Virus record (IMG/VR): IMGVR_UViG_3300037852_000247
Coordinates: 1-64,000 of that record
Reading direction: 5' to 3' (one strand)
DNA from: a virus
Lineage: Duplodnaviria > Heunggongvirae > Uroviricota > Caudoviricetes
DNA: 64,000 bases
Part shown: positions 298 through 16,288 of the stretch, piece by piece
Numbering within the stretch: the first letter of the stretch is position 1
Layout of the letters: every line of letters begins with the position of its first letter
Translations under genes and position numbers: made by a program
The notes under the pieces: generated by a model
Told to the model about the DNA's origin: nothing
Seen by the model: only the letters and a program-made list of their open reading frames with translations
Databases searched by the model: none

Positions 298-677
298 TGC
301 TCCACCTCCTCAGCCGTGATCGGCGTGTAGTGCGCTAGAGGCACCCTCGCGTCATCCTCCGCAGCCGCCTGAAGCAGTAATCGGCGGGTGCGCATGAGCA
401 CCTCAGCCGCGCGTAAACGATAATTGGGGAAACCGTCATCAAGCAGGCCCATGGCCTCCTCGATCTGGCCGAGCGCCAATGCGATATTTTTCATGGCAAA
501 TCCTTGTACCTCCGTGATGTGCATCACCTGTCCCTCCACTCTATCTCGATTTCGTGGAACGAGATCCGAGATGAGATCCAGTGGAGAACGGCTATGATCT
601 TTTTTTTCATGGCAGATCCTTGACGCGGCCCGTCGGGTCTGCGCCAAGCGGGGAAGTTGCCGCGGGAAACCGCGCAC
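294..677 (-). CDS. Hypothetical protein, leftward operon
   Basis: 127-aa ORF that overlaps the neighbouring gene by 4 nt, so it sits in a tightly packed minus-strand operon. Confidence 0.4.
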   Translation of the reverse strand: MRGFPRQLPRLAQTRRAASRICHEKKDHSRSPLDLISDLVPRNRDRVEGQVMHITEVQGFAMKNIALALGQIEEAMGLLDDGFPNYRLRAAEVLMRTRRLLLQAAAEDDARVPLAHYTPITAEEVEQ

Positions 678-717
678 GTCATGGCAGGTCCCTTATTATA
701 GCGTTTCGGGGTCGATA

Positions 718-984
718 TCATTCTAGGTCCCGATAAGTGATCCGGTGTCGAATCTTCCACGCCGCCACCTCGCTGATCCCAAACTCTCGCGCGAGTTCGG
801 TAACGTTGCTGCGGGCTAGCGCCGCGCTGATCCCAAACTGTCGCGCGAGCTCGGTAACGCTGCCGCGGGTTAGCGCCGCCCGAATTCTAGCGACCTGTTC
901 GAACGTCAGTTTCCGCCGCGTCCGGGAGCGGGGCTTGCCTGGGTGAGCAGCGAGATATTTTTCGAGTGGGGTTGTCGCGGTCAT
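718..984 (-). CDS. HTH DNA-binding protein with internal tandem duplication
   Basis: 88 aa. The segment SVTELARQFGISAALAR is followed by its near-copy SNVTELAREFGISEVAAW. The DNA at 781-880 is a ~51-bp tandem repeat. Confidence 0.5.
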   Translation of the reverse strand: MTATTPLEKYLAAHPGKPRSRTRRKLTFEQVARIRAALTRGSVTELARQFGISAALARSNVTELAREFGISEVAAWKIRHRITYRDLE

Positions 985-1069
985 GCTCAGATCACCGCGC
1001 AGATGATTGCGGCCATGTAGGCCGTGACGGCTAGCGCCGCAATGACGAACGCGACGTAGATTACGCGCT

Positions 1070-1282
1070 TCATGCGGCGGCCTCGCTGGCGGGTGCTTCG
1101 CAATGCTCGCAGGTTTCGCTTCGGGCTACACGATCCTCTGAGCCAGCGGCGTAGCCAGCAAAATAATCAGATCGCTGGAATGGATGGCGCGTCTCGTCGG
1201 GAGCTATCGCGCGCTGGCCGTCGATGCCGTCGTGATAGCCTTGCTGCCAGAACCAATTGTGTTCGGGGTCGATCTCTCGCAT
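1070..1282 (-). CDS. Hypothetical protein (start at internal Met, coupled to upstream gene)
   Basis: The MREIDPEHN start codon at 1282-1280 overlaps the stop of the upstream ORF by 1 nt. The longer ORF from 1336 is less likely. Confidence 0.3.
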   Translation of the reverse strand: MREIDPEHNWFWQQGYHDGIDGQRAIAPDETRHPFQRSDYFAGYAAGSEDRVARSETCEHCEAPASEAAA

Positions 1283-1628
1283 CACGCGTTCCTCCGTTGG
1301 CAGTGCCAGTAGCAGAAGCGGTTGTCGCGACACCAATCGGCGTCAGGGCAGCCGGCCGGATGCATGTGTACGTCGGCTGGGATGCCGGTTCCTGTGCGGG
1401 GTTGCCGGCTGCTTTTCGGGACTACGTAGAGCCGTTGTGGCGCCTTCGGATCTTTCGAGTTATCGTGTTGGGCCATTGCTGCGCAGCGCGACCGCTCTGC
1501 CTCAATCGCCTCAGCGATTTGCACGGCCACAAAAGACAGCCCGTCAGCGCTAGTTCGGCTATCGAGATAATGGGTCAGAAACAGCCGCCATTCGTCGGCG
1601 TTCGTTCCCTGTGGCCTCGCGGCCATCA
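1282..1628 (-). CDS. Hypothetical protein
   Basis: The MAARPQGTNADEWRLF start at 1628 abuts the stop of ORF 1626..1922. The upstream extension to 1812 would overlap that gene. Confidence 0.35.
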
Positions 1629-1922
1629 CGCGGCCCTCCCGCGCCAACCCGGCACCGAGGTGTCGATGCCGCGGGTCTCCGCGATGTTCAGGCGTCTGTA
1701 TTGCTTTATGGCCCGGCGAAGGTGGTGCCGGGCGCGGGGAAGGGAGAGCCCGCGGATTCGCGTGCACCGGCAATAGTAGAACCAGCATTCGAAAAGGTTT
1801 CTCTGTGCCCACCCGAGGCGGTCAATGTATTGGAGGTGCCCGTCGCGCATGACCTCCCATGCCAGCCGCTCTGCCTCACCGGCAGCGGCAAGCTCTGCGC
1901 CGGCATCATCGATCGCGCTCAT
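1626..1922 (-). CDS. Hypothetical protein
   Basis: 98-aa ORF with no recognisable motif. Confidence 0.4.
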   Translation of the reverse strand: MSAIDDAGAELAAAGEAERLAWEVMRDGHLQYIDRLGWAQRNLFECWFYYCRCTRIRGLSLPRARHHLRRAIKQYRRLNIAETRGIDTSVPGWRGRAA

Positions 1923-2122
1923 TGTGACGACTCCGCTTCCGCGATCAGCGCGGCGAGCTCGGCCTGCATGTGCCGCAGGTCAGTGAGGTACGCGCGCAGC
2001 GTCGGGGCGCGTTCCTCATCGCGATCCTCGGCGTCATCAAAGACGCGCGCCAGATACGCGGCATCGCTCCGGAGGTTTCGAGCGGAGCAACACAAATCGA
2101 TCATGTCGGCTTCGGTCGTCAT
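1919..2122 (-). CDS. Hypothetical small acidic protein
   Basis: 67-aa ORF coupled to its neighbour by a 4-nt overlap. Confidence 0.4.
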   Translation of the reverse strand: MTTEADMIDLCCSARNLRSDAAYLARVFDDAEDRDEERAPTLRAYLTDLRHMQAELAALIAEAESSQ

Positions 2123-2224
2123 CGGCTGCTCTCCCTTCGATCGGGTTTAATGGGGGGGGATGTCCAGGCCAGCCGGGCGCTTTAATGCGCTTATCCGGCC
2201 AGTCTGGATGTCAGATGTTGCGGG

Positions 2225-2455
2225 TTAGAAGCAGGTAACGGTAACGCCGTCGTTTACACACACGTTACCGTTGTTGTTGCCGTTGCCGCTGCCGCTGCTC
2301 CCACCGCTGCCGTTTCCGGTACCGTTGCCGGTGCCATTGCCGAGGAAGCTTCCGATGCTGTTGAACATGTCCGTAAACCAGTCCGCCCTCGCCTGGTTTG
2401 GTGCGGCGACGGTCATTCCCAGCAGGAACAGCCCGCCAATCAATGCCTTTGTCAT
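2225..2455 (-). CDS. Small secreted Gly/Asn-rich peptide (bacteriocin-like)
   Basis: 76 aa. N-terminal signal peptide MTKALIGGLFLLGMTVAAPNQARA, then GNGTGNGTGNGSGGSSGSGNGNNNGN repeats and a C-terminal C-x-N-D-G-V-T-V-T-C-F. An AT-rich promoter region follows at 2460-2660. Confidence 0.5.
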   Translation of the reverse strand: MTKALIGGLFLLGMTVAAPNQARADWFTDMFNSIGSFLGNGTGNGTGNGSGGSSGSGNGNNNGNVCVNDGVTVTCF

Positions 2456-3040
2456 GTTTGCTCTCTCTCTAAATCCGATCGGGTTGATCGTGAGGGGAGC
2501 TTAATCGGTCAGTTTTCCTAAAGCAACCAAAAAATAGGAAAATTTTCCGATTTTTTATGCAAGGCCAAAATTTGCCCGAAATCTTAGCGACTTCTTGGCT
2601 TGCCCATGCGGTATCAAGCAGCCTAAAAGCGGCGCCCGCACATTGATAAAAGGGGTGGATGATAGATGGCCCTGACGCCTGCAGAACGCCGATTCTCTCG
2701 ATTTATCCACGAAGTTAGCACGCCATCCGACAATAAATTCAATGGGGTGGGGGGCCAGGTCATCATCGCCGTCGTTCTGGCCGGCGCGGCGGCGGTCGTC
2801 GCTTCCTATGGCTACGGGCACTCTCCGATGCTCCCAGAGGGACACAGTTTGCCCGCGATGGCGTTCTTCCCGGCGATTGTTGCGGCGAGCCGTTTTGGGC
2901 GGCCGACATCCTGGATCTGCGCTGCGACTCTTCTGCTTATCGAGGCTCTCTACCTTCCTTCGCGAGGGCCGCTGGGGTTTGAGGCAGAATTCGTGCCTTG
3001 GTACATCGAATGTGCCCTTGCACTTTGCGCGGTGGCGATT

Positions 3041-3484
3041 CTATCGTCGGGTCGGCGAGAACCCCATGCCCCGGATAAGGGCGTCAGCCAAGGCAAGCGC
3101 CTCGGCATCATCAGGAATCGGTTGCCCATCCTCTTTGCGTTCGGAGAGAATATCGTAAAACAGCGCCGTCGCCTGGCAGACAACCAGGGCTCGACCGTCT
3201 GTCCGCCGCGGGACCTTCTTTTCGGCCACCATCAACGCCATTCGTAGCAGCTCGACGTCGACTCGCGGGGTAGACTGAACCCCGATCGCCTCCGCCAGCG
3301 TCCAATCGAGGGCGCGCGCTATCGACGCGATGCTGTCCATCCGGCGCGCCCGGCCGGGCACCTTTCGGATAAGGCTATCGTCCAGGCCAGCCTCGCGCAG
3401 CAACGCGCTCTCCGCTTTGCCGAGCTCGGCCACACGGCGATGCACTCGCTTGAGAAATGCCTCCTCGGACCACTCGGCAGTCAT
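3041..3484 (-). CDS. Phage repressor-like XRE-family HTH protein
   Basis: HTH segment LREAGLDDSLIRKVPGRARRMDSIASIARALDWTLAEAIG. The MTAEW start at 3484 was chosen so the gene does not run into the divergent promoter region. Confidence 0.55.
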   Translation of the reverse strand: MTAEWSEEAFLKRVHRRVAELGKAESALLREAGLDDSLIRKVPGRARRMDSIASIARALDWTLAEAIGVQSTPRVDVELLRMALMVAEKKVPRRTDGRALVVCQATALFYDILSERKEDGQPIPDDAEALALADALIRGMGFSPTRR

Positions 3485-3572
3485 ACGCGAAGAATCGCGC
3501 GTAGGAAAATTTTCCGGTATCGGTGAATTCGCCCGCTTGACATAGGATAGTTTGCCTATAAAGTGGGGCGTT
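3485..3572. promoter_or_regulatory. Divergent promoter/operator region (lysogeny switch-like)
   Basis: About 90-bp gap between the leftward repressor and the rightward genes. It contains TTGACA..TATAAA-like hexamers and a perfect 12-bp palindrome GGAAAATTTTCC (3504-3515). The same palindrome recurs at 2537-2548 upstream of the secreted-peptide gene. Confidence 0.4.
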
Positions 3573-3848
3573 ATGGTTCCCTCAGAGGCGCTCAAATTAC
3601 TGGCCCGGCTGTACCTGGATCACACAGGCAGAACGGCCTTTAACCTCGGCTATCGCTCCGGCATGGGCGGGAAATTCTTCCAGCTCGTGTTGGCTGGAAA
3701 AGGCTATCACTCGGATAGCGGCGACAAGGCGATGCTCTGGTTCTCCGCAAATTGGCCTGCCGATCTGCCGTGGCCGCAGTCGATTCCGAAACTCGCCATA
3801 CCCGCCCAGACGATCCCCGTCGCTGCCGCTGATGAGGACGTAGCCTGA
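3573..3848 (+). CDS. Hypothetical first rightward early protein
   Basis: ATG at 3573 preceded by GTGGGG. The ORF-track start at 3552 lies inside the promoter. Confidence 0.4.
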   Translation: MVPSEALKLLARLYLDHTGRTAFNLGYRSGMGGKFFQLVLAGKGYHSDSGDKAMLWFSANWPADLPWPQSIPKLAIPAQTIPVAAADEDVA

Positions 3849-4030
3849 TGCCGAGCCCGCCAGAATTCCGCATCATCGGGTCCCGCGCGCCGTTCGGCCG
3901 CAAGGGCACCCGGTCGAAATGGCTGTGGCGCTGCGCCGGTCCCGATCATGTCAGTTGGCTGATTACATTGACAAACGGTGAGACGCTGGGGCCGTTCGAC
4001 GATCCCACCGCCGCGCAGTCGTGGCTTTAA
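3848..4030 (+). CDS. Hypothetical protein
   Basis: 60-aa ORF coupled to the upstream gene. Confidence 0.3.
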   Translation: MPSPPEFRIIGSRAPFGRKGTRSKWLWRCAGPDHVSWLITLTNGETLGPFDDPTAAQSWL

Positions 4031-4413
4031 TGGCGCGGTCGGCAATGATTTCTCGATTCCTCGCTGCAGCGAACCGGCACCTGCGCGCCTTCTGGCAGCG
4101 CATCCCTCGCCGACGAAGTTTGCGGCCGCAGCATTGGGTGTTTGAAGGCAGCCACATTAATCGTCGCGTCCTTCCAATTATTCTGGCTCCGATGATTGCC
4201 CACAATGAACGCCAACAGAGGGCACAGCAAAAGCTCGCCGAGGTCCTCGCGGCCAGATCGACCCCGTTCGAGATCGCGAGAACTCTCACCGCCTGTTGGC
4301 GATATTCCATCGGCGATGACGATGGCGCTGCCTACGGCTTGGTAGAGCATGGCGTCGAATTATGGGAGTTGATCAAGCAAGCAGTCGAATTCGAGCGGAA
4401 CTGTGCGCAATGA
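4021..4413 (+). CDS. Hypothetical protein
   Basis: 130-aa ORF. Confidence 0.4.
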   Translation: MALMARSAMISRFLAAANRHLRAFWQRIPRRRSLRPQHWVFEGSHINRRVLPIILAPMIAHNERQQRAQQKLAEVLAARSTPFEIARTLTACWRYSIGDDDGAAYGLVEHGVELWELIKQAVEFERNCAQ

Positions 4414-4586
4414 TGCCAGCCCGCTCCATTCCAGTTAGCCTCGCCATGGGCAATCCTGCCCGCCCGATTTCCCGTCAGGCATGGCGAGGCCGGGGGCGCT
4501 ACTGCAAGGATCCCCGCAGTAGCGCCCCCTCTCATACGGCACTGGCGGGGGAGACCAGCACCGTCACGAGCTTGTGGCGGTAGGCG

Positions 4587-5090
4587 ATGGCCGCAATTCG
4601 CCTTCCCTGTGGATTGATTGCCCTCGTCGATGAGGAGGACTTCGACCGGGTCGCGCAAATCAAATGGCACGCTAAGCCTTCTAAGAAGCGTCTCGTCTAT
4701 GCCGTTCATCGAATTCGTGCGCCCGGCGGCGTTCAGCGTCAACTTCTTATGCATCGTTTCATTCTCGGCGTACCACCAGAGATCTTGGTTGATCATCGGG
4801 ACGGCAATGGCCTGAATAATCGGCGTCTGAATCTTCGCGAATGCACAAACGCCCAAAACGCAGCGAACAGAAAACGACTCGGGCAATGCCTAAAGGGCGT
4901 GTGGCGCACGGAGTCCGGTAAATACAGCGCACGAATCTCACATCTAGGCCAAAGAACCTTTCTGGGAACCTTTGATTCGGAAATCGCGGCGGCATTCGCA
5001 TACGATGCGGCCGCACAAAGACTGTTCGGCGAATTTGCGAAATTAAATTTCCCAGACAATCATTTCGGAGAGGTCGATGCTGCCGCATGA
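4587..5090 (+). CDS. HNH endonuclease with C-terminal AP2 DNA-binding domain (homing-endonuclease-like)
   Basis: HNH motif LMHRFILG...VDHRDGNGLNNRRLNLRECTNAQN, followed by the AP2-like segment GKYSARISHLGQRTFLGTFDSEIAAAFAYDAAAQRLFGEFAKLNF. Confidence 0.7.
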   Translation: MAAIRLPCGLIALVDEEDFDRVAQIKWHAKPSKKRLVYAVHRIRAPGGVQRQLLMHRFILGVPPEILVDHRDGNGLNNRRLNLRECTNAQNAANRKRLGQCLKGVWRTESGKYSARISHLGQRTFLGTFDSEIAAAFAYDAAAQRLFGEFAKLNFPDNHFGEVDAAA

Positions 5091-5284
5091 CCTGTCCGTC
5101 CGAGTTCGGGCGATCGTATGGGGGAAGGAAGCGCGGCTGCGCTTCCTTGGTGTGGCGCGGTGTCGTGCTGCTCGAGCGACTGACCGAGGTCTGGGGGAAA
5201 AGGCGACTTCGGCCAATCCGCGCCCGCCAATGCAAGCCTCCTCTTTCACGATCCATTCACGACTTTTTCACGATTCGAAGGGCG

Positions 5285-5785
5285 ATGACTAGTGATCTGA
5301 AGGGCAACGCCTTTGCATATGAGGGCAATGATTTTGCAGGGAACGCTGCCTTCGCGCTCGATTTCCTCGTTGCTCAGCGCATTGCCGAGCAGAATCGCGA
5401 TAAGGCGGTCGCCCGCATGTTTGGCGTTTCGTTGCGCATGGCTAAATATCTGCGCGAAGGCAAACACTGGACTGTCAACCGGCTATCAACGGCGAGCGCG
5501 TTGCTTGGCCGGGATTTCGACGTGTTGGTCATCGTGCCGCTGCGCTGCGGAATTGCTCCGGAGGAAATTCACGATCGCATCGACGAAGTTAAAAATCAGA
5601 TCGAAGATGAAATCGTGCTTCTGCGGAGTGAAGTCCGGGATGGGTTTTCTCAGATCATGCGTTTCCTTGGTGCTCTTGTACATGGCGAGGCAGATCCTGC
5701 GTTTCTCGCGCAGGACGGCGCCGCCACGCAGGAACCGGTGGTGGCTCAACCATTAATCGCGGCGCACATCAGAAACGAGGCGTGA
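5285..5785 (+). CDS. Hypothetical regulatory protein (HTH-like segment)
   Basis: Start at internal ATG 5285 (MTSDLKGN). Contains AVARMFGVSLRMAKYLREGK. Confidence 0.4.
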   Translation: MTSDLKGNAFAYEGNDFAGNAAFALDFLVAQRIAEQNRDKAVARMFGVSLRMAKYLREGKHWTVNRLSTASALLGRDFDVLVIVPLRCGIAPEEIHDRIDEVKNQIEDEIVLLRSEVRDGFSQIMRFLGALVHGEADPAFLAQDGAATQEPVVAQPLIAAHIRNEA

Positions 5786-5850
5786 TTCGATGGCTGCTGC
5801 TCCGCTTCCGGATCTGGCGGGCGCTGCGAAGGTAGCGGAGGACGAGCCGC

Positions 5851-6102
5851 ATGGCTGAGCGCGTCCCGACTCCGATAGTGCCGGAATGGCGGCTGATCCG
5901 ACGGGAACGAGACGGGCAGCCGGCGCATGTTCTGCTGACCGCAGAAGGTCATTTCATTTGGTGTCCCGGCAAGTCCTGGGAGTTGCCACCGGGTTGGGCG
6001 TGGGGAGGTGATCCCGAACCGGGCGCGGCATATTCAAGGCACCCCGATCTTCTGATCGCCCAAGCCATGTCGAAGATAGCGGAGGACGAGCCCTATGGCT
6101 GA
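5851..6102 (+). CDS. Hypothetical small protein
   Basis: 83-aa ORF overlapping the next gene. Confidence 0.3.
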   Translation: MAERVPTPIVPEWRLIRRERDGQPAHVLLTAEGHFIWCPGKSWELPPGWAWGGDPEPGAAYSRHPDLLIAQAMSKIAEDEPYG

Positions 6103-6325
6103 ACCTCCGAAGTGGCGGAATGCCGAGAAATCGATCCTTGAAATGGCTCGCCGATGTTATCCGTCGGCGACGGAGCGCGCCGCACTACGTGGCGGACTCG
6201 GAGACGCGGCCTGTCTCTGTGACGCGATAGCTAACGAACTTCCAAAAAACGAAGCTGCCATCGCCAAGCTATGCGCTGACGCGATTTGGACAATGAGAAG
6301 CAAGGTGCAGGTGCCGCATGACTGA
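6095..6325 (+). CDS. Hypothetical small protein
   Basis: 76-aa ORF in a chain of 8-nt overlaps. Confidence 0.3.
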   Translation: MAEPPKWRNAEKSILEMARRCYPSATERAALRGGLGDAACLCDAIANELPKNEAAIAKLCADAIWTMRSKVQVPHD

Positions 6326-6620
6326 GCATGGCGCTGGTGATGGGATTGTGTTCCGCGGCCCCCATGCCCGCCCCGGTGATGAGGCGCGCGCGACCTACGC
6401 CACCGTTGCACTCCGCCGCGCAGCGGTTCCTATCCTCGACCGCTACGGCGGCACCGCGCTCATTGACGCGCTGATTTCGGTTTGGCTCGATCTCAACCTC
6501 ACCGCCTCCGGAGTCTCGAACACCGACGAAATGTTGCGCCAGCTGCGGCGGGATCTGCCAAAATTCGCCGCCGCCCATCGGGCAAAGAACGCGAAACCGC
6601 AGGGAAAGCTCGATGGCTGA
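6318..6620 (+). CDS. Hypothetical small protein
   Basis: 100-aa ORF in the same chain of overlapping genes. Confidence 0.35.
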   Translation: MTEHGAGDGIVFRGPHARPGDEARATYATVALRRAAVPILDRYGGTALIDALISVWLDLNLTASGVSNTDEMLRQLRRDLPKFAAAHRAKNAKPQGKLDG

Positions 6621-6873
6621 GCGCGCCCTGCCCGCAGGTATGACCCCGCGCCTTCTGTCGCGCGAGGCCGCAGCGACCTATTGCGGGATTTCGCCCAACC
6701 ATTTTGATGAACACCTCGCCGAGGCGGTCCCGCCGGTCTTCATTGGTCGCCGGAGGCTTTGGGACGTCAAGGCGCTAGACCGCTGGCTTGATGCGCAATC
6801 GGGCCTCGCCCACTCTGTCGATTCTAGGTCGATGGAGGAGAGGCTCAATGGAGATCAAGGTGCGCGGCGTTAA
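6613..6873 (+). CDS. AlpA/excisionase-like HTH protein
   Basis: REAAATYCGISPNHFDEHL...PVFIGRRRLWDVKALDRWLD, typical of AlpA/Xis-type DNA-binding proteins. Sits immediately upstream of int. Confidence 0.6.
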   Translation: MAERALPAGMTPRLLSREAAATYCGISPNHFDEHLAEAVPPVFIGRRRLWDVKALDRWLDAQSGLAHSVDSRSMEERLNGDQGARR

Positions 6874-8014
6874 AGTCTATCGCAGCCGCGGGAAGGTTTA
6901 TGCCTATCACCGCAAGACGGGTAAGCGCATTCGCGCGCCGTTCGGGACTGCGGTATTCCTGGCCGAGGTCGAGCGGCTCAATGGCGCCCAACCGGTCGCT
7001 CCCAGCCCCGGCTCATTGGGCGGGCTCATTGCTGCGTATCGGCGGTCGCCGGAGTTCCTTGAGCTGGCCCCGCGGACCCGGTCCGACTACCAGAAGGTGT
7101 TCGACTACCTGCGACCGCTCGACGGCGATGCGCTGTTCGAGATCACGTCGGCCTATGTGATCGACGTCCGCGACGCGGCGTTCCGGTCGCACAAGCGACG
7201 GTTCGCGAATTACGTGCTCGCGGTACTGCGGCTGCTCCTCAAATGGGGCGCAGTGCGCGATCTGGTCGAGACAAACCAAGCTGCCGCGGTGCCGAAGCTG
7301 CGGCGGCCGCGGAACATGGCCCCCGCTAACCGGCCGTGGACGGATGCCGAATATGAAGCCGTTATCTCAGCCGCTTCCGGTGGCATCAAAATCGCCATCG
7401 CTCTCGGTCGCTTCACGGGCATTCCGGAGGGCGACATGGTCCGGTTGCCGAGATCCGCCTACGACGGCAATTGGATAAGCTGGCGCCGCGGCAAGACCGG
7501 CAACCCGGTCGACCTGCCGGCGCATCCCGAACTCAAGGCGATCCTCGACGAACGAAAAATTTTAGAGATCCCTGACCCCGCCATGCCGGGAGCTAGCCTG
7601 ATTTTAGATCGAGGCGATGCGGAACCGGATGCACCCCGTAGCTCAACGGAAGAGCGCTCGTCGACCGAGACGAGAGATGGGGGTTCAAATCCCCCCGGGT
7701 TTGCGCCAATCGAGGCGATGACGATCGTCGCCGGTGTGAAGGGTCGGCCGTACACCGAGAGCGGCTTCCGCGCGGGTTTCTTCAAGCTGATCAAATCGCT
7801 GCGTGAGCAGGGTCTCGTGGGGCCGCGCCTGACATTCCAGGGACTCCGCACCACCGCCGCCACGGCGCTCGCCGAGGCCGGGTGCAGCACGCAGACGATC
7901 ATGTCCGTTACCGGGCACAGCACCGAGGCGATGGTGGCCCACTATACCAGGCAAGCCAACCGGAAAAACCAAGCCGTTGCTGCGGTCGAGAAACTGAGGC
8001 CGAGGAAGACATGA
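6848..8014 (+). CDS. int: Tyrosine integrase (phage integrase family) with in-frame insertion
   Basis: GGAGGAG RBS precedes the ATG at 6848. The N-terminal arm-type domain is MEIKVRGVKVYRSRGKVYAYHRKTGKRIRAPFG. Box II and the catalytic Tyr are FQGLRTTAATALAEAG...IMSVTGHSTEAMVAHYTR. About 50 extra residues (7565-7720) sit between the box I region and the downstream conserved block. Confidence 0.85.
   Translation: MEIKVRGVKVYRSRGKVYAYHRKTGKRIRAPFGTAVFLAEVERLNGAQPVAPSPGSLGGLIAAYRRSPEFLELAPRTRSDYQKVFDYLRPLDGDALFEITSAYVIDVRDAAFRSHKRRFANYVLAVLRLLLKWGAVRDLVETNQAAAVPKLRRPRNMAPANRPWTDAEYEAVISAASGGIKIAIALGRFTGIPEGDMVRLPRSAYDGNWISWRRGKTGNPVDLPAHPELKAILDERKILEIPDPAMPGASLILDRGDAEPDAPRSSTEERSSTETRDGGSNPPGFAPIEAMTIVAGVKGRPYTESGFRAGFFKLIKSLREQGLVGPRLTFQGLRTTAATALAEAGCSTQTIMSVTGHSTEAMVAHYTRQANRKNQAVAAVEKLRPRKT
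7620..7708 (+). other. tRNA-like element embedded in frame in int, flanked by 12-bp direct repeats
   Basis: GTAGCTCAACGGAAGAGCG is a D-arm consensus and GGGGGTTCAAATCCCCC is a T-arm. The anticodon-like stem is CTCGTC/GACGAG with a 6-nt loop. The element ends in GCGCCA. ATCGAGGCGATG occurs at 7608-7619 and again at 7709-7720. Confidence 0.45.
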
Positions 8015-8317
8015 GCGAACCGAACGAGATCAGCGAACTCTATGAGCATCGCCATGCTCTTTTCATTGCTTTGTGCCGGCAGCTTCCATCGTGGGCGTGG
8101 CGCTCAAGGCTCCATTCTGACGGCACGATGTTCAACGGGTGCTTCATTATGGGGCTCGGCGAAAATCCTGGCGACCAAGTGAGCTATTACCTGCCCATCC
8201 AGCTTTGGGATCAAACCGATTTTGCGAAGACGCTAGATCGCGCACCCAAATTGGATGGGCACTCGCCCTACGACGCGATCGAGAGGTTGTATTCGATATG
8301 ACAACCAGGTGGCCAGG

Positions 8318-8608
8318 ATGACAGATGATCGCAAGAGCGCAGAATTTCTTGCCGACGGAGCCGGCTTGGCTTCGTACCCTTACGTTCGCGAGGCGTGGAT
8401 AAAGGCGTGCCTCGAGGTGCTCCTAAATGCCCGCAAGGAATCGCGGGAACCGCTGATCATGGTCAGCGATCTCCCAGAGCCGATCCGCCATCACGCAATG
8501 GACACCCTAGCATCGGTCGCGCAGTCGATCCGAGCGGCTTATTGCTGGGGGTTACACCCAACCAGCAATGAGCAGGTGAACGATCCCGAACGGCGGTCGC
8601 GAAGCTGA
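8318..8608 (+). CDS. Hypothetical protein
   Basis: MTDDRKSAEF start inside ORF 8255..8608. Confidence 0.3.
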   Translation: MTDDRKSAEFLADGAGLASYPYVREAWIKACLEVLLNARKESREPLIMVSDLPEPIRHHAMDTLASVAQSIRAAYCWGLHPTSNEQVNDPERRSRS

Positions 8609-8621
8609 GGCCGAGGACACT

Positions 8622-9170
8622 GTGCTAAGCCTTGCTCCATGCTCGCTCGAAGAGGCGAATGCGTTCGTGGCATTGCATCATCGACACCATCACCCGACGC
8701 CAGTAGCCAAATTTTCGATCATGGCCGTCTATGGTGGCCGCGCTGTTGGCGTGGTGATTGTCGGGATGCCGAAGGCGAGAATGGCTATGGATGGCTGGAC
8801 GCTTGAAGTGACGCGGTTAGCCACCGATGGCACTCGCAACGCCTGTTCGTTCCTCCTAGGGGCCGCTCGTCGGGCGGCGTTTGCGATCGGCTACAGTCGA
8901 ATACTTACTTACACGCTGTCGGAAGAGGGCGGCGCTAGCTTGCGCGCAGCAGGATTCCGTGGAGAGGCGACGATCCGAGGCGAATCGTGGATGCGGCGCT
9001 CTGAATACGGCGGACGCTTTAGTGACGACCGGAATCCGATCGGAGACAAGACGCGATGGAGCGCTGGCGTCAAGTGCGAGTTGCGTCCGCCGCGAATTTC
9101 GACTGGTGAACCGTCTCGGCAAGCGTCTTTGCCGCTGGAAGTGTCTAGCGGCATAGTCACAGGTGTCTAA
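8622..9170 (+). CDS. GNAT-like acetyltransferase-fold protein (tentative)
   Basis: LLGAARRAAFAIGYSRILTYTLSEEGGASLRAAGF resembles the GNAT motif A (R-x-x-G-x-A ... LY..GF). The HHRHHHP segment is unusual. Confidence 0.3.
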   Translation: MLSLAPCSLEEANAFVALHHRHHHPTPVAKFSIMAVYGGRAVGVVIVGMPKARMAMDGWTLEVTRLATDGTRNACSFLLGAARRAAFAIGYSRILTYTLSEEGGASLRAAGFRGEATIRGESWMRRSEYGGRFSDDRNPIGDKTRWSAGVKCELRPPRISTGEPSRQASLPLEVSSGIVTGV

Positions 9171-9348
9171 CGCATGATGGCGCGCTATCCTAACCCATTG
9201 AAATCGCGTCCGTACGGACCGGCATTGCGCCGCAGAAAAACGGACCACCAGTCGGCTGCTCCACGTTGTAATTTCAATAGGCCTTATCCGCAAAAGCGTC
9301 TAACGCGCTCTATTGCGACCCGCGGAGTTCTGCCAAGGGGGCGCGGTG

Positions 9349-10239
9349 ATGTCTAGCGCAAAACCGCTCGCGATCGACCTCTATTGCGGCCTTGGTGGTT
9401 GGGCCGAAGGCCTGCTCGCAGAGGGCTTCGATGTCATCGGATTCGATATCGAGCGGCATCGGTACCCAGCGCGCGATCTGTCGGCTTCCGATGGAACGAA
9501 GATCAGGCAGAGTGGAGTAGACTTCAACCATCCGCGGGTCGGGAGCAGCGCGAACCGATCATTCAATTATGCGAACGAGCGTGCGGTCCGCGATGCGCCG
9601 CTGACCGGTGGATGGATCGAGTATCCCGGCCATCTCGTCATACAGGACGTGCGCACGCTGCGCGGCTCTCAGTTCAAGGACGCGGCGCTGATCGTCGCAT
9701 CGCCGCCATGCCAAGCGTACAGCTATCGGGCAATGCCGTGGAAGCGAGCAAAGGCGTTGCCGCCACCTGACAACACGCTTTTCGAGACATGCTTCCGCAT
9801 TCAGCGCGAGGCGTCGGGGGCATCCGGACATCACGTCCCCCTAATTGTCGAGAATGTTCGCGGCGCGCAGCCATTTGTCGGTCGCGCACGGTGGAATTTT
9901 GGATCGTTCTACCTCTGGGGAGACGTGCCAGCTTTGATGCCGATCACATTCAAAGGCCAGAAACTCCCTGGCTTCCGGTTCGACGGCAGCGGTCGATCGT
10001 TTCAATCCGAGTCTGTCACGAGAAAGAACAACGGCGTATGGACAAATCCCGATGAGGATGCTGGCATCAAGCATCAGGAATCTGGCCACGCATGGTATCG
10101 CACAGGGCACGGCCAGCTGCCGTCCTCATCCTCGCGGCGCAAAGCCGCAAGCGCCATGATCGCCAAGATACCGCAACCGCTCAGCCGGCATATTGCAGCG
10201 GTCTTTCGCACACCGCCAGCGGGGCGCGGCGATGCCTAG
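9349..10239 (+). CDS. DNA (cytosine-5)-methyltransferase
   Basis: Motif I LYCGLGGW, motif IV PPCQAYS, ENV motif. The start at 9349 lies inside a copy of the junction motif. The protein C-terminus ends PPAGRGDA like the downstream cassette proteins. Confidence 0.8.
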   Translation: MSSAKPLAIDLYCGLGGWAEGLLAEGFDVIGFDIERHRYPARDLSASDGTKIRQSGVDFNHPRVGSSANRSFNYANERAVRDAPLTGGWIEYPGHLVIQDVRTLRGSQFKDAALIVASPPCQAYSYRAMPWKRAKALPPPDNTLFETCFRIQREASGASGHHVPLIVENVRGAQPFVGRARWNFGSFYLWGDVPALMPITFKGQKLPGFRFDGSGRSFQSESVTRKNNGVWTNPDEDAGIKHQESGHAWYRTGHGQLPSSSSRRKAASAMIAKIPQPLSRHIAAVFRTPPAGRGDA

Positions 10240-10429
10240 AGATTTGACGGATTTCCACTTCCTGCTTACGGGCTGCAATGACGAGCAGGCCGACGGCGAA
10301 ATAGACCTGGAGGAGTTTCAATTGGTCTTTCTTCCCCACCTCAAGCAGATACGGATCAATCTGACAGGCGAGCAGGTTGCGCAACTTCAGAAATGGCCGT
10401 CAGCGATGAGCCGGCGCGGCGAAGCCTAG
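10229..10429 (+). CDS. Cassette protein with EF-hand-like loop
   Basis: MPRDLTDFHFLLTGCNDEQADGEIDLEEF..., where DEQADGEIDLEE fits D-x-x-x-D-G-x-I-x-x-x-E. Ends in a degenerate junction motif (RRGEA). Confidence 0.4.
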   Translation, partial: AMPRDLTDFHFLLTGCNDEQADGEIDLEEFQLVFLPHLKQIRINLTGEQVAQLQKWPSAMSRRGEA

Positions 10430-10450
10430 CGTTTTGCGAAGGATAGGCGG

Positions 10451-10672
10451 ATGAACACACTCTATTGCTCGTTCTGCGGGAAGGCCGAACACGAGGTGTT
10501 CTATATCGTAGAGGCACCGGTGCGACAGGGGATTTGCGACGAGTGCGTGGTGCTGGCCAGCGACATAATCCAAACTCAACGCGCCAAGGTTGCGCGCGGC
10601 GAGCCAGTTCGCCGTCATTACCGCACACTTGCGGAGTTTCGCGCCTCGCCAGCGGGGCGCGGCGATGCCTAG
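10451..10672 (+). CDS. Standalone ClpX-type C4 zinc-finger protein
   Basis: MNTLYCSFCGKAEHEVFYIVEAPVRQGICDECVVLASDIIQ matches the ClpX N-terminal zinc-binding domain (LYCSFCGK...ICDECV). Ends ...SPAGRGDA. Confidence 0.65.
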   Translation: MNTLYCSFCGKAEHEVFYIVEAPVRQGICDECVVLASDIIQTQRAKVARGEPVRRHYRTLAEFRASPAGRGDA

Positions 10673-10841
10673 CGAGCGCGATCACCTTCACTGCAGTGAG
10701 ATGTGCGAACACCCGCAACCATTCTGTGTCGGCGAACTCATTCTGTGCGGGCTTTGTTTTTACTTCCGAGATCGAATCACGCCGATGGTGGAGTGCTCTC
10801 GGGATTATTGCGGTGAGCCAGCGGGGCGCGGCGATGCCTAA
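10665..10841 (+). CDS. Cassette Cys-rich small protein
   Basis: MPSERDHLHCSEMCEHPQPFCVGELILCGLCFYF...CSRDYCGEPAGRGDA, 58 aa. Confidence 0.45.
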   Translation: MPSERDHLHCSEMCEHPQPFCVGELILCGLCFYFRDRITPMVECSRDYCGEPAGRGDA

Positions 10842-11007
10842 AGATCGCTGGGTGATCGAGTTAATTCTGGACGATCCAGAGGAGGCGCGTCTGGCGTATG
10901 ACGCGATCGAAAAGCTGCTTGTTGAGATGGGCGAGATCGGGACGCTTTGGTTCTATCGCCGGACTCGCAACCCGCTCCCACCGCTAGCGGAGCGCGGCGA
11001 TGCCTAA
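10838..11007 (+). CDS. Cassette small protein
   Basis: MPKDRWVIELILDDPEEARLAYDAIEKLL...PLAERGDA. Confidence 0.4.
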
Positions 11008-11266
11008 GCACAAAAGTTACGGCTGCTACGAAAAAACGGCGCGAGTGTTGGTCAAAGAATTTTTGACGGCTCGGTTTCCCGGAGACGCCTCTTGGCGTGA
11101 AATGATGGCCGAAATAAAGGAACGGAAATTGACGCAAATTTCGGTCGACGACGCTCTCCTGACATTATCGGCTAGTAAGGAGGCGGAAATTGTCGATAGC
11201 CAAGCAAAATTCAAACGTGATTGGCGCTGGCGCGCAATACCGCCAGCGGGGCGCGGCGATGCGTAG
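11000..11266 (+). CDS. Cassette small protein
   Basis: MPKHKSYGCYEKTARVLVKEFL...PPAGRGDA, 88 aa. Confidence 0.45.
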   Translation: MPKHKSYGCYEKTARVLVKEFLTARFPGDASWREMMAEIKERKLTQISVDDALLTLSASKEAEIVDSQAKFKRDWRWRAIPPAGRGDA

Positions 11267-11489
11267 CGTTTCACAGGCTACCGGCGTGCCGTGCATCTAT
11301 CCTGCACCTTCTGATCGAGGAAAGCCGTACATCGTGAGGGTTATGATCAACAAGAAACTCTACACGGTAGGGACCTTTGTCACAGTCGAGGACGCCGTTG
11401 TGGCTCTCGCGGAGTTCCGTCTCGCTAATCCTCGACCAGCGATCCGGCGCAGTCCCGTTACTGGAAGATATGAGCGAATCTATGACTGA
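11259..11489 (+). CDS. Cassette AP2-like DNA-binding protein
   Basis: GKPYIVRVMINKKLYTVGTFVTVEDAVVALAEFRLAN resembles an AP2/integrase-type DNA-binding domain. Confidence 0.45.
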   Translation: MRSVSQATGVPCIYPAPSDRGKPYIVRVMINKKLYTVGTFVTVEDAVVALAEFRLANPRPAIRRSPVTGRYERIYD

Positions 11490-11505
11490 CCAGAGGGGCG
11501 CGGCG

Positions 11506-11742
11506 ATGCCTAGCCCACCGGACGGGAAGGAGATCTGGGCACAACCTGAGCCATCAGACGCTATGGTCTGGGCAATTTGCCCCTACATCACTCGCCGCAA
11601 TCTCGAACTTTGCAACCGCTGCCCGAAGTGGGAATGGGACGCTCGTGGTGAATCGGACGTCCAACGCGGCTGCTACGGAATGGCCGCTGAGGCCTGTCGG
11701 ATCGTTTTTGCGATGCAGCGGCGAGAGGTGCACGGTGTGTGA
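11506..11742 (+). CDS. Cassette Cys-containing small protein
   Basis: MPSPPDGKEIWAQPEP...CPYITRRNLELCNRCPKWEW..., 78 aa. Confidence 0.4.
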   Translation: MPSPPDGKEIWAQPEPSDAMVWAICPYITRRNLELCNRCPKWEWDARGESDVQRGCYGMAAEACRIVFAMQRREVHGV

Positions 11743-11759
11743 ACAAGCGGGGCGCGGCG

Positions 11760-12011
11760 ATGCCTAATGCTTTGAAAGAAGCGGATACTCTACTGCCAGA
11801 CGATCTGGCGGACTGGGTCTCAAAACTATCCGAAGTATTGACGCCGCTTGATTGGGCAGAACAAGCCTTAGATTATGCCCAAGTAAAGCATAGCCGACGG
11901 CCCTTCTTACGCCCACACCTAGCGCGGGCTATTACTGAGGCACAAGAGGCCGCCGTGAAAAGGGCATCACGTCCTAAACCGGAACCGCCAGCGGAGCGCG
12001 GCGATGCCTAG
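11760..12011 (+). CDS. Cassette small protein
   Basis: MPNALKEADTLLPDDLADW...PPAERGDA. Confidence 0.45.
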   Translation: MPNALKEADTLLPDDLADWVSKLSEVLTPLDWAEQALDYAQVKHSRRPFLRPHLARAITEAQEAAVKRASRPKPEPPAERGDA

Positions 12012-12189
12012 CGATGCGCTGATCACTGCCGAGGCTACCGAACGCCTTGCGCGTCTGCGCGCCGGGATGGTGGACGAGATTTCGCGGCAACAGAAAATGC
12101 TGAACGCCCTTCGCGCAAGACTATCGGGCGTGGATGCCGTGATTTCGGTAGTGGAGTGTGTACCGCCAGCGGAGCGCGGCGATGCCTAG
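12004..12189 (+). CDS. Cassette small coiled-coil protein
   Basis: MPSDALITAEATERLARLRAG...PPAERGDA. Its 3' 70 bp (12105-12175) are duplicated at 12366-12435. Confidence 0.45.
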   Translation: MPSDALITAEATERLARLRAGMVDEISRQQKMLNALRARLSGVDAVISVVECVPPAERGDA

Positions 12190-12400
12190 CGCAAAACGGC
12201 GGCGACCGCCAATCGTCAAACCGGTGGCCGCTGCATCGAAATATCCCTGCACGCAATGCGGAGGGGATGCTCTTGTTGGCTTTGTCGCGAATAAGCCTGG
12301 AGATTGGTACGGCAAGATCAATGTCGGCGAAAGGCTTTGTACTGGTTGCTTCGTGAGGCTAGCGCCCTTCGCGCAAGACTATTGGGCGTGGATGCCGTGA
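12182..12400 (+). CDS. Cassette Cys-rich zinc-ribbon-like protein
   Basis: MPSAKRRRPPIVKP...YPCTQCGGD...CTGCFVRLAP. Followed by the duplicated 3' fragment of the previous cassette. Confidence 0.4.
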   Translation: MPSAKRRRPPIVKPVAAASKYPCTQCGGDALVGFVANKPGDWYGKINVGERLCTGCFVRLAPFAQDYWAWMP

Positions 12401-12439
12401 TTTCGGTAGTGGAGTGTGTACCGCCAGCGGGGCGCGGCG

Positions 12440-12628
12440 ATGCCTAGCGTAAAAACGCGCGAGCAGGCTCGCATTCGGATGGAGAGATTCTATGCAAAGC
12501 GAGCAATTCACCGTGGCGTGCGCTGCTACGTATGTATGAAGCCCACTCACGGCTATTTCCGCTGTCTGAGTTGCCGCCGAAAGCTCAACTCGCGGCGTAT
12601 GGATAAGAAGGGGCGCGGCGATGGATAG
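12440..12628 (+). CDS. Cassette Cys-rich small protein
   Basis: MPSVKTREQARIRMERFYAKR...CYVCMKPTHGYFRCLSCRRK...KKGRGDG. Confidence 0.4.
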   Translation: MPSVKTREQARIRMERFYAKRAIHRGVRCYVCMKPTHGYFRCLSCRRKLNSRRMDKKGRGDG

Positions 12629-12839
12629 CGATGAGATCAGCTTCGACCCGCCGTTGCCCCTGCCTCTCGACGAGACGGCCGGGCGGCTATTTGATCGGCT
12701 GTGTCGGGCTCACGCAGCCCTGCTTAAAGCCCAAGCTGCGCTCAACCCGTTGTCCGGGTTTTTGCGGAAACGGCCGCCGAAAATGGAGCGCTATCTCGAA
12801 AGCGTGAGGCAAGAAATTCGGGAGGCTATGCGTGACTGA
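12621..12839 (+). CDS. Cassette small protein
   Basis: MDSDEISFDPPLPLPLDETAGRLFDRLCRAHAALLK... Confidence 0.4.
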   Translation: MDSDEISFDPPLPLPLDETAGRLFDRLCRAHAALLKAQAALNPLSGFLRKRPPKMERYLESVRQEIREAMRD

Positions 12840-12877
12840 AACATTGCCTGACCATACGACAGCAGCGGGGCGCGGCG

Positions 12878-13069
12878 ATGGCTAGGTCAGGAATCCACCG
12901 TCATGTCTGGGACGAAGTGTCGTATGGCGCGCAGGGGTGGTTTTTTTGCCCCTACTGCAAGGCGGTGCGCGCGCCTTCCGGGAGGATATTTCATGAGAGC
13001 AAGACCATCCGTGAGATTGACGGCGTAACCATCAATGACAATCCGCTAGCGGGGCGCGGCGATGCCTAG
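12878..13069 (+). CDS. Cassette Cys-containing small protein
   Basis: MARSGIHRHVWDEVSYGAQGWFFCPYCKAVRAP...PLAGRGDA. Confidence 0.4.
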   Translation: MARSGIHRHVWDEVSYGAQGWFFCPYCKAVRAPSGRIFHESKTIREIDGVTINDNPLAGRGDA

Positions 13070-13102
13070 CGATTTAAGCCAATCACACTGAGGGGGAAAG
13101 AA

Positions 13103-13744
13103 ATGCCGAGAGGTGCTGAATTTTCGATCAAGGCCGACTACGCCCAGCTGGTCTCGCCATTCGCGTCAAACGACAAGACGCGGTGGAATCTGAACGGCTT
13201 CTACGTCCAACGGCACCCGTCGGGCGGTGCGGTGATCGTTGCCACCGACGGCCGATCTCTGGCCGTCTTCTACGACCAGTTCGGCGAGGTCAAGGCGCCC
13301 GCCATCGTCCGCCTTCACAAAACCACCCTGGCGGCGTGCGCTGAGGATTGCACGCTGGTGCTGACCGGCGATCGCGCCGGCGTCTACCAGATGTGGAACA
13401 AGGAGACCGGCGAGGGCATCCTCGTTGCGGGACAGGATCAAGCCGTTATCGAGGGCGACTTCCCGGATTGGCGCTTGCTGATCCCACCGGTTCCGGCCGA
13501 GACCGTACCAGCGACATTCGCGTTCACCGAACTGAAGAAGTTCGACAAGGTCAGGCAGTTCGGTTCCAAAATCGCGGCGCTACGTATCTTAGCTGAGTCA
13601 TCAAGTGGGCCCGCCATCGTTCTGACCAAGCGCGACGATTTCCTCGGCGTGATCATGCCAGTCCCCGGCATCGCCGACGAAAACCGGATGCCGCATTGGA
13701 TGCCGCGGCCGAACGTGGGGCCGTCGGCAGCGGCGGCGGAATGA
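13103..13744 (+). CDS. DNA polymerase III beta-clamp-like single-domain protein
   Basis: KTRWNLNGFYVQRHPSGGAVIVATDGRSLAV resembles the DnaN motifs TRYYLNG...ATDGHRLA. GAGGGGGAAAG RBS upstream. Confidence 0.45.
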   Translation: MPRGAEFSIKADYAQLVSPFASNDKTRWNLNGFYVQRHPSGGAVIVATDGRSLAVFYDQFGEVKAPAIVRLHKTTLAACAEDCTLVLTGDRAGVYQMWNKETGEGILVAGQDQAVIEGDFPDWRLLIPPVPAETVPATFAFTELKKFDKVRQFGSKIAALRILAESSSGPAIVLTKRDDFLGVIMPVPGIADENRMPHWMPRPNVGPSAAAAE

Positions 13745-14151
13745 CATTCTACCCCATCACGCCAATGGCCGCACCTAGACTCACGAATCGGGATCGCTGG
13801 AAGAAGCGTCCCGTAGTGCTGGAATATTTCGCGTTCCGTGACGAGGTCGCAGCTAGGCGCGTCTCGCTGCCGATACCATCGAAAATCATCTTCTGGATGC
13901 CAATACCACCGTCCTGGTCCAAGAAGAAACAGCGAGACGCTGATTCCGCTCCTCATGAGCAGACGCCGGATATTGACAACCTCCTAAAGGCTCTCATGGA
14001 GGCAGTCTTCCGCGACAAGGACGCGATCGTCTGGTCTGTGTGGCCCGAGAAGCGATGGAGTAGCAAGCCCGGGATCGAGGTTCTCCCGATCATGACCTCT
14101 TCGCTTACGACCGCCACGCTCGCCGACGTGTGGCCGGGGGTACCGCTATGA
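13741..14151 (+). CDS. rusA: RusA-family Holliday junction resolvase
   Basis: APRLTNRDRWKKRP...PPSWSKKK...PHEQTPDIDNLLKALMEAVF...DAIVW matches RusA family signatures. Confidence 0.7.
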   Translation: MTFYPITPMAAPRLTNRDRWKKRPVVLEYFAFRDEVAARRVSLPIPSKIIFWMPIPPSWSKKKQRDADSAPHEQTPDIDNLLKALMEAVFRDKDAIVWSVWPEKRWSSKPGIEVLPIMTSSLTTATLADVWPGVPL

Positions 14152-14462
14152 GCGTCGTCGACTGGTCTGGGCGTCGCGAGCCGTGGCGCCGCGTCGGCAG
14201 CGAATTTTGCAGGATTCTTCCAGCGCTTGTTCGTGGTGATCCAGTCCCGCAGCCGCATGAAGCCGCTCGGCCTCGAACCCACGCACAGGTCACATGGATC
14301 ATCGAGCGACGAATGGAAATGGGTCTCTCGCAGCGCGAATTAGCGCGACGAGTTGGCTGTTGGCAGGCGGAAATAAGCCGCATCGAGAGAGGTGAGCGCC
14401 AGCCATCGCAAGCCATGCATGAGCGGCTCGCTGCGGTATTGCTGCCGGAGCCGCCGCCGTGA
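14148..14462 (+). CDS. XRE-family HTH regulator
   Basis: GLSQRELARRVGCWQAEISRIERGERQPS. Confidence 0.6.
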   Translation: MSVVDWSGRREPWRRVGSEFCRILPALVRGDPVPQPHEAARPRTHAQVTWIIERRMEMGLSQRELARRVGCWQAEISRIERGERQPSQAMHERLAAVLLPEPPP

Positions 14463-14827
14463 CCGACCTCTTCGACTGGCGCGAAGGAGCCGCCCTCCGC
14501 GATCGCGGCATGGCCCTCGCTGAGGCCGCCCAGGAGCGCAAAGCGCCCGGCTGGAGCGACCGCGCCTACGCCGCAATCGACCACGTCGCGCACGCCCAGC
14601 CTACCGTGCACATCGATCCAGTGCGGCAGGTCTTCCGCGAAGAGCCTCCAACGCACCCGCGCGCATGGGGCGCGGTCTGGACCCGCGCGATCAAGGCCGG
14701 CCTGATCGAGCCGACAGGCATGGTCAGCAAGACGACCGATCCGCGCAAGCACGGCCATCCATGCCCCGTCTACCGGTCTCTTGTCTACAACAGCCCGGCC
14801 CGGGAGGTGGCCGCAACCCAGAGATGA
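14459..14827 (+). CDS. Hypothetical protein
   Basis: 122-aa ORF coupled to the upstream gene. Confidence 0.4.
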   Translation: MTDLFDWREGAALRDRGMALAEAAQERKAPGWSDRAYAAIDHVAHAQPTVHIDPVRQVFREEPPTHPRAWGAVWTRAIKAGLIEPTGMVSKTTDPRKHGHPCPVYRSLVYNSPAREVAATQR

Positions 14828-16281: not shown

Positions 16282-16288
16282 GCGCCGA

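Follow-up and report, generated by a model that had tools for sequence, protein, structure and literature searches.

What is a tRNA-shaped sequence doing in the middle of an intact integrase gene? The question is raised by a locus in the first 64,000 nucleotides (nt) of the IMG/VR virus record IMGVR_UViG_3300037852_000247 (Caudoviricetes), the whole of which stretch is referred to below as the window. There, a tyrosine-recombinase (integrase-like) open reading frame (ORF), int, carries a block of extra codons whose DNA resembles a tRNA. The initial annotation offered two explanations for the block: an attachment site inside the integrase gene, as in SSV1, or a tRNA-derived miniature element tolerated in a surface loop. 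The best explanation of the analyses reported here is that the block is a recent insertion and is not part of the recombination machinery of int. With a probability of about 0.5, a small tRNA-derived sequence, either mobile or copied more than once, was inserted here in frame and is tolerated. The evidence comprises homologues with an empty site, a second copy of the tRNA-like core in another phage, the open frame, the variable loop that accepted the insert, codon usage like that of non-coding DNA, and selection on int.

The block is a lineage-specific insertion in a constrained gene

The features on which this part of the analysis is based are as follows.
6613–6873, + strand: excisionase-like HTH_17 gene, overlapping the start of int and forming a xis–int module with it
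6848–8014, + strand: tyrosine-recombinase (integrase-like) ORF, int (Pfam, homologue alignment, lambda Int structures)
7560–7700, + strand: lineage-specific insertion, net +141 bp, translated as ILEIPDPAMPGASLILDRGDAEPDAPRSSTEERSSTETRDGGSNPPG (protein and DNA alignments)

The int ORF encodes 388 amino acids (aa) and is open throughout, insert included; its longest form begins with a TTG start at 6788. The product matches Pfam Phage_integrase and aligns with lambda Int structures. The ORF had been described as continuous with about 50 extra codons, and it is indeed uninterrupted, with 47 extra codons relative to 11 aligned homologues, located between the residues ...LKAILDER and APIEAM. The closest homologue, encoded by L001, is 94% identical in aa sequence when the insert is left out and lies in the same gene order, including the WDGH gene; the xis–int–WDGH order is common to the loci of P0001, P0128, and P0130 (∼94% identity). 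In the DNA alignment with L001, which has an empty site, the window shows a net gain of 141 bp at ∼7560–7700: L001 reads CTCGACGATCGTCAGACC immediately followed by GCGCCAATCGAGGCGATG, and in the window 141 extra bases precede the same GCGCCAATCGAGGCGATG. The ends of the insert are uncertain by a few nt, and the int flanks on either side of it are precisely collinear with the homologues. As the initial annotation had anticipated, integrase homologues could be used to delimit the insert, and none of the extra residues were found in them: the insert is absent from P0001–P0007, P0128, P0130, and the other homologues in the alignments, and nearly all of the 316 homologues detected at E ≤ 0.001 are ∼340–355 aa long. 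Because the block is missing from every close homologue, it is a recent, lineage-specific insertion and not a feature of the integrase family.

The insert also differs from its surroundings in composition. The GC content at third codon positions is 0.55 within the insert and 0.78–0.82 in the remainder of int, which is the pattern expected of DNA that has not evolved as coding sequence. Copying of the insert from elsewhere in the phage was considered and rejected, as no match longer than 12 nt to it occurs elsewhere in the window. The gene around it has remained constrained. In the comparison with L001, the synonymous divergence (dS) is 0.22, and the ratio of non-synonymous to synonymous divergence (dN/dS) is 0.14 overall and 0.04 downstream of the insert, which indicates that int is kept under purifying selection.

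In the clade to which the window integrase belongs, the box I catalytic Arg (lambda R212) is replaced by Pro in the motif TGIPEGD, and the box II His (lambda H308) is replaced by Gln in the motif FQGLR; the Lys, the second Arg, the His, and the Tyr are retained. This clade also includes P0001–P0006, P0128, and P0130, and more distant homologues have the Arg and the His. The Pro/Gln clade is nevertheless under purifying selection. Relatives of the integrase in cultured phages (identity ≤35%) all infect Alphaproteobacteria. At 22474–23556, the window encodes another tyrosine recombinase, in which the catalytic residues (R, HxxR, H, and Y) are complete; it may be the working integrase of the phage.

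The insert contains a defective cloverleaf and an exact 12-nt repeat

The insert and its right border can be divided into the following parts.
7560–7607, + strand: left segment of the insert, bounded by the 8-nt repeat ATTTTAGA (7559–7566 and 7601–7608)
7608–7619, + strand: left copy of the 12-nt repeat ATCGAGGCGATG, inside the insert, read as (D)RGD
7620–7630, + strand: 11-nt spacer CGGAACCGGAT between the left repeat and the core (sequence reading), not conserved in the second copy found in L015
7631–7708, + strand: tRNA-like core, 78 nt (ARAGORN 7632–7704, Rfam tRNA 7632–7703, RNA fold)
7709–7720, + strand: right copy of ATCGAGGCGATG, ancestral int sequence coding for IEAM and also present at the L001 empty site

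The tRNA-like character of the core, first noted by eye as a D-arm, a T-arm, and a GCGCCA end, was also recovered by dedicated programs. ARAGORN reports a tRNA-??? with a 4-base anticodon 'accg' at 7632–7704, the single tRNA-like gene of the 64-kb window. The core scores 45.1 bits with the covariance model of the Rfam tRNA family (RF00005), whose gathering score is 29 (E = 2e-6 over the entire window), and it is the sole RNA-family match within the 64 kb; a tRNA-Phe in L010, taken for comparison, scores 70.4 bits. The D-arm and T-arm are intact, and the elbow nucleotides U8, A14, G18G19, T54-Psi55-C56, and A58 are present, as are the T-loop TTCAAAT and the G53–C61 pair. The rest of the molecule is degenerate, in agreement with the initial description of the anticodon loop and acceptor pairing. 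In the canonical register, the acceptor stem forms five of seven pairs, with two C.U mismatches, and in the alternative fold the acceptor helix is bulged, its 5′ strand having one additional C and its 3′ strand an additional TT. Eight nucleotides (CGACCGAG) make up the anticodon loop, which lacks U33 and contains no assignable anticodon, and the variable loop has 4 nt. The 3′ end of the core is GCGCCA, and the fold z-score is only −1.7. A self-contained tRNA gene within the insert was considered and rejected, as the promoter search returned no promoter-like site in or before the insert.

The 12-mer ATCGAGGCGATG occurs exactly at 7608–7619 and 7709–7720, 101 bp apart, as originally reported. 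An exact repeat of at least 12 nt was found in 0.28% of simulated 240-nt sequences of int-like composition (∼0.003). The repeat is too long for chance and suggests a target duplication or a microhomology-guided step. The claim that the repeats flank the insert stands for the tRNA-like part, which they bracket, and fails for the insert as a whole: the left copy lies 48 nt within the insert and 11 nt 5′ of the core. The repeats were rejected as insert boundaries, since a deletion between them removes 101 nt and shifts the frame. The spacing of 101 nt is not a multiple of three, so that the reading frame differs between the left copy (DRGD) and the right copy (IEAM), and the 101-nt unit alone would lead into a TGA at 7718–7720 and a truncated Int. 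The left segment supplies the +40 nt that return the total to frame. The six nucleotides GCGCCA are common to the 3′ end of the core and to ancestral int, which makes the right junction ambiguous. Models of aberrant excision and of mini-circle integration were also tried and rejected, as the segments are not arranged as in attL or attR products.

The left segment has no counterpart in the L015 copy. A genome-collection scan with this segment gave a single match outside the phage, 22 identical nt (GATCCCTGACCCCGCCATGCCG) shared by 7567–7588 of the window and 763–784 of L002. The latter position is intergenic, within a region of Agrobacterium sp. DSM 25558 that resembles an integrative and conjugative element (ICE), and has no tRNA nearby; with an expectation of roughly 0.1, this identity is likely due to chance.

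In line with these features, the tRNA-like part may have entered int by an event that duplicated 12 bp of the target or used these 12 bp as microhomology. The extra 40 nt upstream would then have restored the frame lost by the 101-nt unit, which would fit selection for an intact ORF.

The insertion site is a variable loop of the integrase

Based on the alignment with lambda Int, the insert follows the KTG β-hairpin (K235) and comes before the strand leading into box II. The loop at this site varies in length among homologues: P0010 and P0013 contain inserts of ∼52 aa and ∼20 aa, respectively, and P0080 and P0099 contain shorter ones. The DNA of the P0010 and P0013 inserts (L012 3190–3390 and L013) is not tRNA-like and is unrelated to the window insert. 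The presence of unrelated inserts in other lineages identifies the loop as a hotspot for length change. In the AlphaFold model, which was obtained from a shallow alignment and has a mean predicted local distance difference test (pLDDT) score of 60, so that its support is weak, residues 238–302 are coil with pLDDT <50. The insert site is thus a hypervariable surface loop that is predicted to be disordered. The int copy of the core survived because the insert amounts to 47 whole codons, contains no stop in the frame used, and lies in an insert-tolerant surface loop that is predicted to be disordered. The insert would simply be translated as a hydrophilic, unstructured linker, and its RNA shape would not be needed for integration.

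A second copy of the core is present in a related phage

When the insert peptide was compared exhaustively, with phmmer, to 1.84 billion representative proteins, one meaningful match, P0132, and one repeat-rich false positive were obtained. P0132 contains APRSSTEEHSSTESRDGGSIPPGCAP, the counterpart of APRSSTEERSSTETRDGGSNPPGFAP in the window, and is encoded by L015, a 1.4-kb contig from another Joint Genome Institute (JGI) sample, which has a tRNA-like core at 1062–1136. ARAGORN again reports a tRNA-??? with anticodon accg, and Rfam gives 39.4 bits; either core is listed as tRNA-?(Gly|Arg), the anticodon having 4 bases. Over 77 nt, the cores share 91% identity, and the sequences that flank them are unrelated. 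The Phage_zn_bind_8 gene of L015 has 76% DNA identity to 16337–16504 of the window, from which L015 is judged to be a related phage. No integrase is visible on the 1.4-kb contig. The ORF that runs through the core (L015 627–1295) begins with a conserved N-terminal domain, which the core follows and which is homologous to the window ORF 17898–19148. As this window homologue itself has no core, the related phages bear the core at different places. The presence of the same core in a different gene of a related phage makes it probable that the sequence is a small passenger, either mobile or copied repeatedly, and no attachment site.

Three oddities recur in both cores, namely the additional C within GCACCCCG, the anticodon loop of 8 nt (CGACCGAG), and the variable loop of 4 nt. 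These shared defects indicate that their common ancestor was already non-canonical. The differences between them comprise a compensatory pair in the T-stem (GGGGG/CCCCC versus GGAGG/CCTCC, both changes falling on synonymous third positions), one anticodon-stem mismatch in L015, and the extra TT in the window, which breaks an 8-bp acceptor helix present in L015.

A possible origin of the core was indicated by a 19-mer from its 5′ end, which has a single occurrence in IMG/VR, in the tRNA-Thr(UGU) gene of the 44-kb phage contig L016.
L016 1144–1219: intergenic phage tRNA-Thr(UGU) with the extra C (GCACCCCG opposite CGGGTGC)
This tRNA is otherwise ordinary and has the same GCACCCCGTAGCTCAACGG start as the core, whose first 26 nt are 96% identical to it. 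As the acceptor 5′ strand and the D-arm of the core, together with the extra C, match the L016 tRNA-Thr, the core was most likely derived from a phage tRNA-Thr-like gene, as far as can be judged from these identities.

Further copies were sought in several collections. Exact-pattern scans of IMG/VR with seven insert-derived patterns returned nothing for six and only the phage tRNA-Thr of L016 for the seventh. A scan of metagenomes with a combined D-arm and T-arm pattern, which missed the window itself as well, returned only bacterial tRNA-Thr(UGU) of the tuf cluster, and these genes differ from the core in the acceptor and anticodon arms. BLAST searches of cultured phages and plasmids gave only matches of ∼76% identity to tRNA-Thr and tRNA-Arg, and word-indexed protein searches with the sense and antisense insert peptides gave no match.

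Taken together, these results are best accommodated if a defective, tRNA-derived sequence of 78 nt moves, or is repeatedly copied, among related phages of an alphaproteobacterial type; the 91% identity of the cores, compared with 76% for the shared neighboring gene, is part of the basis for this view. Several observations weigh against it. Only two copies are known, one per phage (the window phage has one in 66 kb), and the IMG/VR, BLAST, and protein searches gave no more. No transposase or reverse transcriptase was found among the ∼40 window ORFs scanned with Pfam. This view does not account for the left 48 nt of the insert, which the second copy lacks, and the repeat that flanks the core in L015 (CATCCGATT and CATGCCGATT) is short, imperfect, and not significant. 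The in-frame state in L015 could be the result of an ORF call through an element that lies past the conserved domain. Finally, the T-stem compensation and the better conservation of the core than of the neighboring genes could mean that the RNA is selected. The proposal of a miniature element comparable to Rickettsia palindromic elements (RPEs) is thus supported in part, by the second copy elsewhere, the variable loop that is predicted to be disordered, and the in-frame insertion, and it is weakened by the small number of copies and the missing mobilizing enzyme.

A more specific version of this proposal is tentative. The core may be the founding example of a tRNA-shaped miniature mobile element of phages, either a prokaryotic analogue of tRNA-derived short interspersed nuclear elements (SINEs) or a transposable element of the miniature inverted-repeat type (MITE) with the acceptor stem as its terminal inverted repeats, which colonizes disordered ORF regions in frame; or else the cloverleaf may be kept because a function is served by RNase P or RNase Z cutting of the int transcript, or by the tRNA-like RNA once released.

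Alternative explanations

The most serious alternative is a functional phage gene for a tRNA-like RNA nested in int, in which case the RNA would be cut out of the early transcript by RNase P and RNase Z and would act, for example, as a decoy against tRNA-targeting defences or as an unusual decoder, or the cleavage itself would down-regulate Int. Many features of the core are those expected of such an RNA: both copies score above the Rfam tRNA threshold, U8, A14, G18G19, the T-loop, and G53–C61 are intact, the 8-nt loop is conserved in both copies, a compensatory T-stem change separates them, their identity exceeds that of the neighboring gene (91% versus 76%), and the related phage contig L016 has a normal-looking intergenic tRNA-Thr with the same 5′ peculiarity. 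However, the acceptor stem is not conserved between the copies, with the TT in the window breaking the L015 helix of 8 bp, the anticodon is unassignable and U33 is missing, no promoter-like site is present, and the fold z-score is low in magnitude (−1.7). The compensatory changes are both at synonymous third positions and would also be allowed by drift at the protein level. Moreover, RNA processing would destroy the int mRNA, yet int is under purifying selection. In our assessment, a nested RNA gene is rather unlikely.

Another alternative is a single capture of foreign DNA, in which a tRNA locus and its 5′ flank served as filler while a break was repaired or an excision went astray; no mobile element would take part, and the L015 copy would have been acquired independently from the same donor gene. 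The sharing of GCGCCA at the right junction is as expected for microhomology-mediated joining, the left 48 nt resemble unrelated filler, and the phage has a gene for an HNH–AP2 endonuclease. However, this scenario requires two independent captures of the same 78 nt at tRNA boundaries, both inside ORFs, and the shared defects require a donor that was already non-canonical. The 12-nt repeat beside the core is also not explained by simple filler. We regard independent captures as unlikely.

The idea that the core is an intragenic phage attachment site (attP), so that integration splits int as in SSV1-like or Mx8-like systems (the intP gene of phage Mx8 being grouped with the SSV-type intragenic attP integrases), is suggested by the very presence of a tRNA-related sequence within an integrase ORF, beside an excisionase-like gene, and by a distant member of the int family that targets a tRNA gene. 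Against an attachment site, that family member, from Azospirillum, shows the classical arrangement, in which int is intact and lies next to a tRNA-Phe gene. The block is missing from all close int homologues, and the core is a complete cloverleaf whose 3′ acceptor strand is defective; since its acceptor stem and its anticodon loop are non-canonical, no normal host tRNA could be regenerated from it. The int clade has lost the box I Arg and the box II His to Pro and Gln, and the phage has the second, canonical recombinase at 22474–23556. The L015 core, in an unrelated ORF, is not visibly linked to an integrase. In addition, int is intact on both contigs on which it was found, and two protein collections contained neither an N- or C-terminal int fragment fused to the insert peptide nor any protein with this peptide besides P0132. 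According to a review, archaea are the only known source of integrases that split the gene encoding them (PMC8371274). An attP within the insert, the first explanation of the initial annotation, is thus not supported and must be considered very improbable.

The last alternative, an assembly or annotation artefact, was prompted by the metagenomic source of the record and by the IMG annotation, which is without a full int coding sequence (CDS). The contig L014 is 100% identical to 1–18014 of the window (18,014 bp) and gives the same tRNA-like call, so the block is not an assembly artefact. No full-length int product is listed in the protein collection. Over the N-terminal 290 int codons (L014 9156–10001, corresponding to 6873–7718 of the window) there is no IMG CDS, and only one part of int was retained as a CDS:
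7718–8014, + strand: C-terminal 98-aa int fragment, P0129, named 'integrase' by IMG
P0129 is found on two contigs of 93.7 kb and 33.5 kb. Probably, the IMG pipeline called the tRNA and dropped the overlapping int CDS. With a second contig identical over 18 kb, int flanks collinear with homologues on both sides, and a simple likely cause for the missing CDS (the tRNA call, with the 98-aa tail kept), a chimeric join or similar error can practically be dismissed.

Comparison with known systems

In behavior, the closest analogy to a tolerated, copied tRNA-derived insert is provided by RPEs and other intragenic MITEs, which are inserted in frame and translated where the protein fold tolerates them (PMC10969869). 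The insert is likewise a short (∼100–150 bp) sequence of non-coding origin placed in frame in an ORF and translated as an extra peptide, its core has a second copy at an unrelated locus, and the acceptor-stem strands correspond to short terminal inverted repeats. In contrast to RPEs, which have tens of copies per genome, the core is found once per phage and twice in all, and it differs from RPEs and MITEs in having a tRNA cloverleaf and phage hosts. A target duplication is seen at one copy only (12 nt, exact) and does not bound the whole insert, and the acceptor stem is the sole inverted repeat. No tRNA-shaped element is mentioned in the MITE review (PMC10969869; the term 'tRNA' does not occur in it).

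In SSV-type integrases, the attachment site is conserved in the gene, matches part of a host tRNA, and leads to splitting of the gene on integration (PMC8371274). The window locus shares with them a tRNA-related sequence inside a tyrosine-recombinase coding sequence. Unlike in those integrases, the block is absent from close homologues, the cloverleaf is complete but defective, and int is intact. Remnants of tRNA genes at attachment sites are also degenerate and associated with an integrase, but they are partial (3′ halves), intergenic, and found at prophage ends, whereas the core is a full-length cloverleaf in the middle of a gene.

Phage tRNA genes form another reference point, and in tRNA-dependent lysogeny a phage tRNA complements the host tRNA disrupted by integration (PMC10865867). 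Here too, a temperate-type phage has a full-length tRNA-like sequence near its integration module. However, phage tRNA genes are canonical, intergenic, and assignable to an isotype, whereas the core, with its anticodon loop of 8 nt and mismatches in the acceptor stem, has no assignable isotype and is located within an ORF. A resemblance of a different kind exists to SINEs of eukaryotes. These are tRNA-derived units of tRNA size with copies at unrelated sites. The core is also tRNA-sized, one of its copies has a 12-bp direct repeat, and its junctions, precise at the 3′ end and untidy at the 5′ end, are as in retroposition. In contrast to SINEs, there is no reverse transcriptase in the window and no A-rich tail, only two copies are known, and the setting is prokaryotic and viral.

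Other features of the window

The window has the gene content of a tailed-phage genome or prophage, with a large terminase, an HK97-type portal, a Mu F-like protein, RusA, methylases, and the xis–int module. The endonuclease gene mentioned above is an ORF at 4587–5090 with HNH_3 and AP2 domains, which are typical of phage homing endonucleases. Between 10218 and 13077, there are 14 copies of a motif of ∼25–45 nt, CCAGCGGGGCGCGGCGATGCCTAG, spaced by 166–259 nt. Each copy is located at a junction of small + strand ORFs, where the stop TAG overlaps the next ATG, and the region forms an array in which short early genes are joined at a conserved cassette. A perfect inverted repeat of 27 nt (19412–19438 and 19772–19798) surrounds 333 nt and could delimit an invertible segment or form a regulatory structure. 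An ORF of 2299 aa at 49124–56023 contains internal tandem repeats of 288–318 nt and is followed, at 56020–61531, by several paralogous ORFs with segments that are 83–92% identical; no Pfam match was obtained for the 2299-aa ORF or the paralogous ORFs (49124–61531).

Implications

A bacterial 'suicidal' integrase with an internal attP would be the first outside archaea, and the evidence from this locus is negative. As the tRNA call by the pipeline apparently cost int most of its CDS, in-frame inserts of this type would for the most part escape notice in protein databases. A mobile tRNA-shaped element, if the core is one, would represent a new kind of small passenger DNA in phage genomes and one route by which phage proteins gain disordered linkers.

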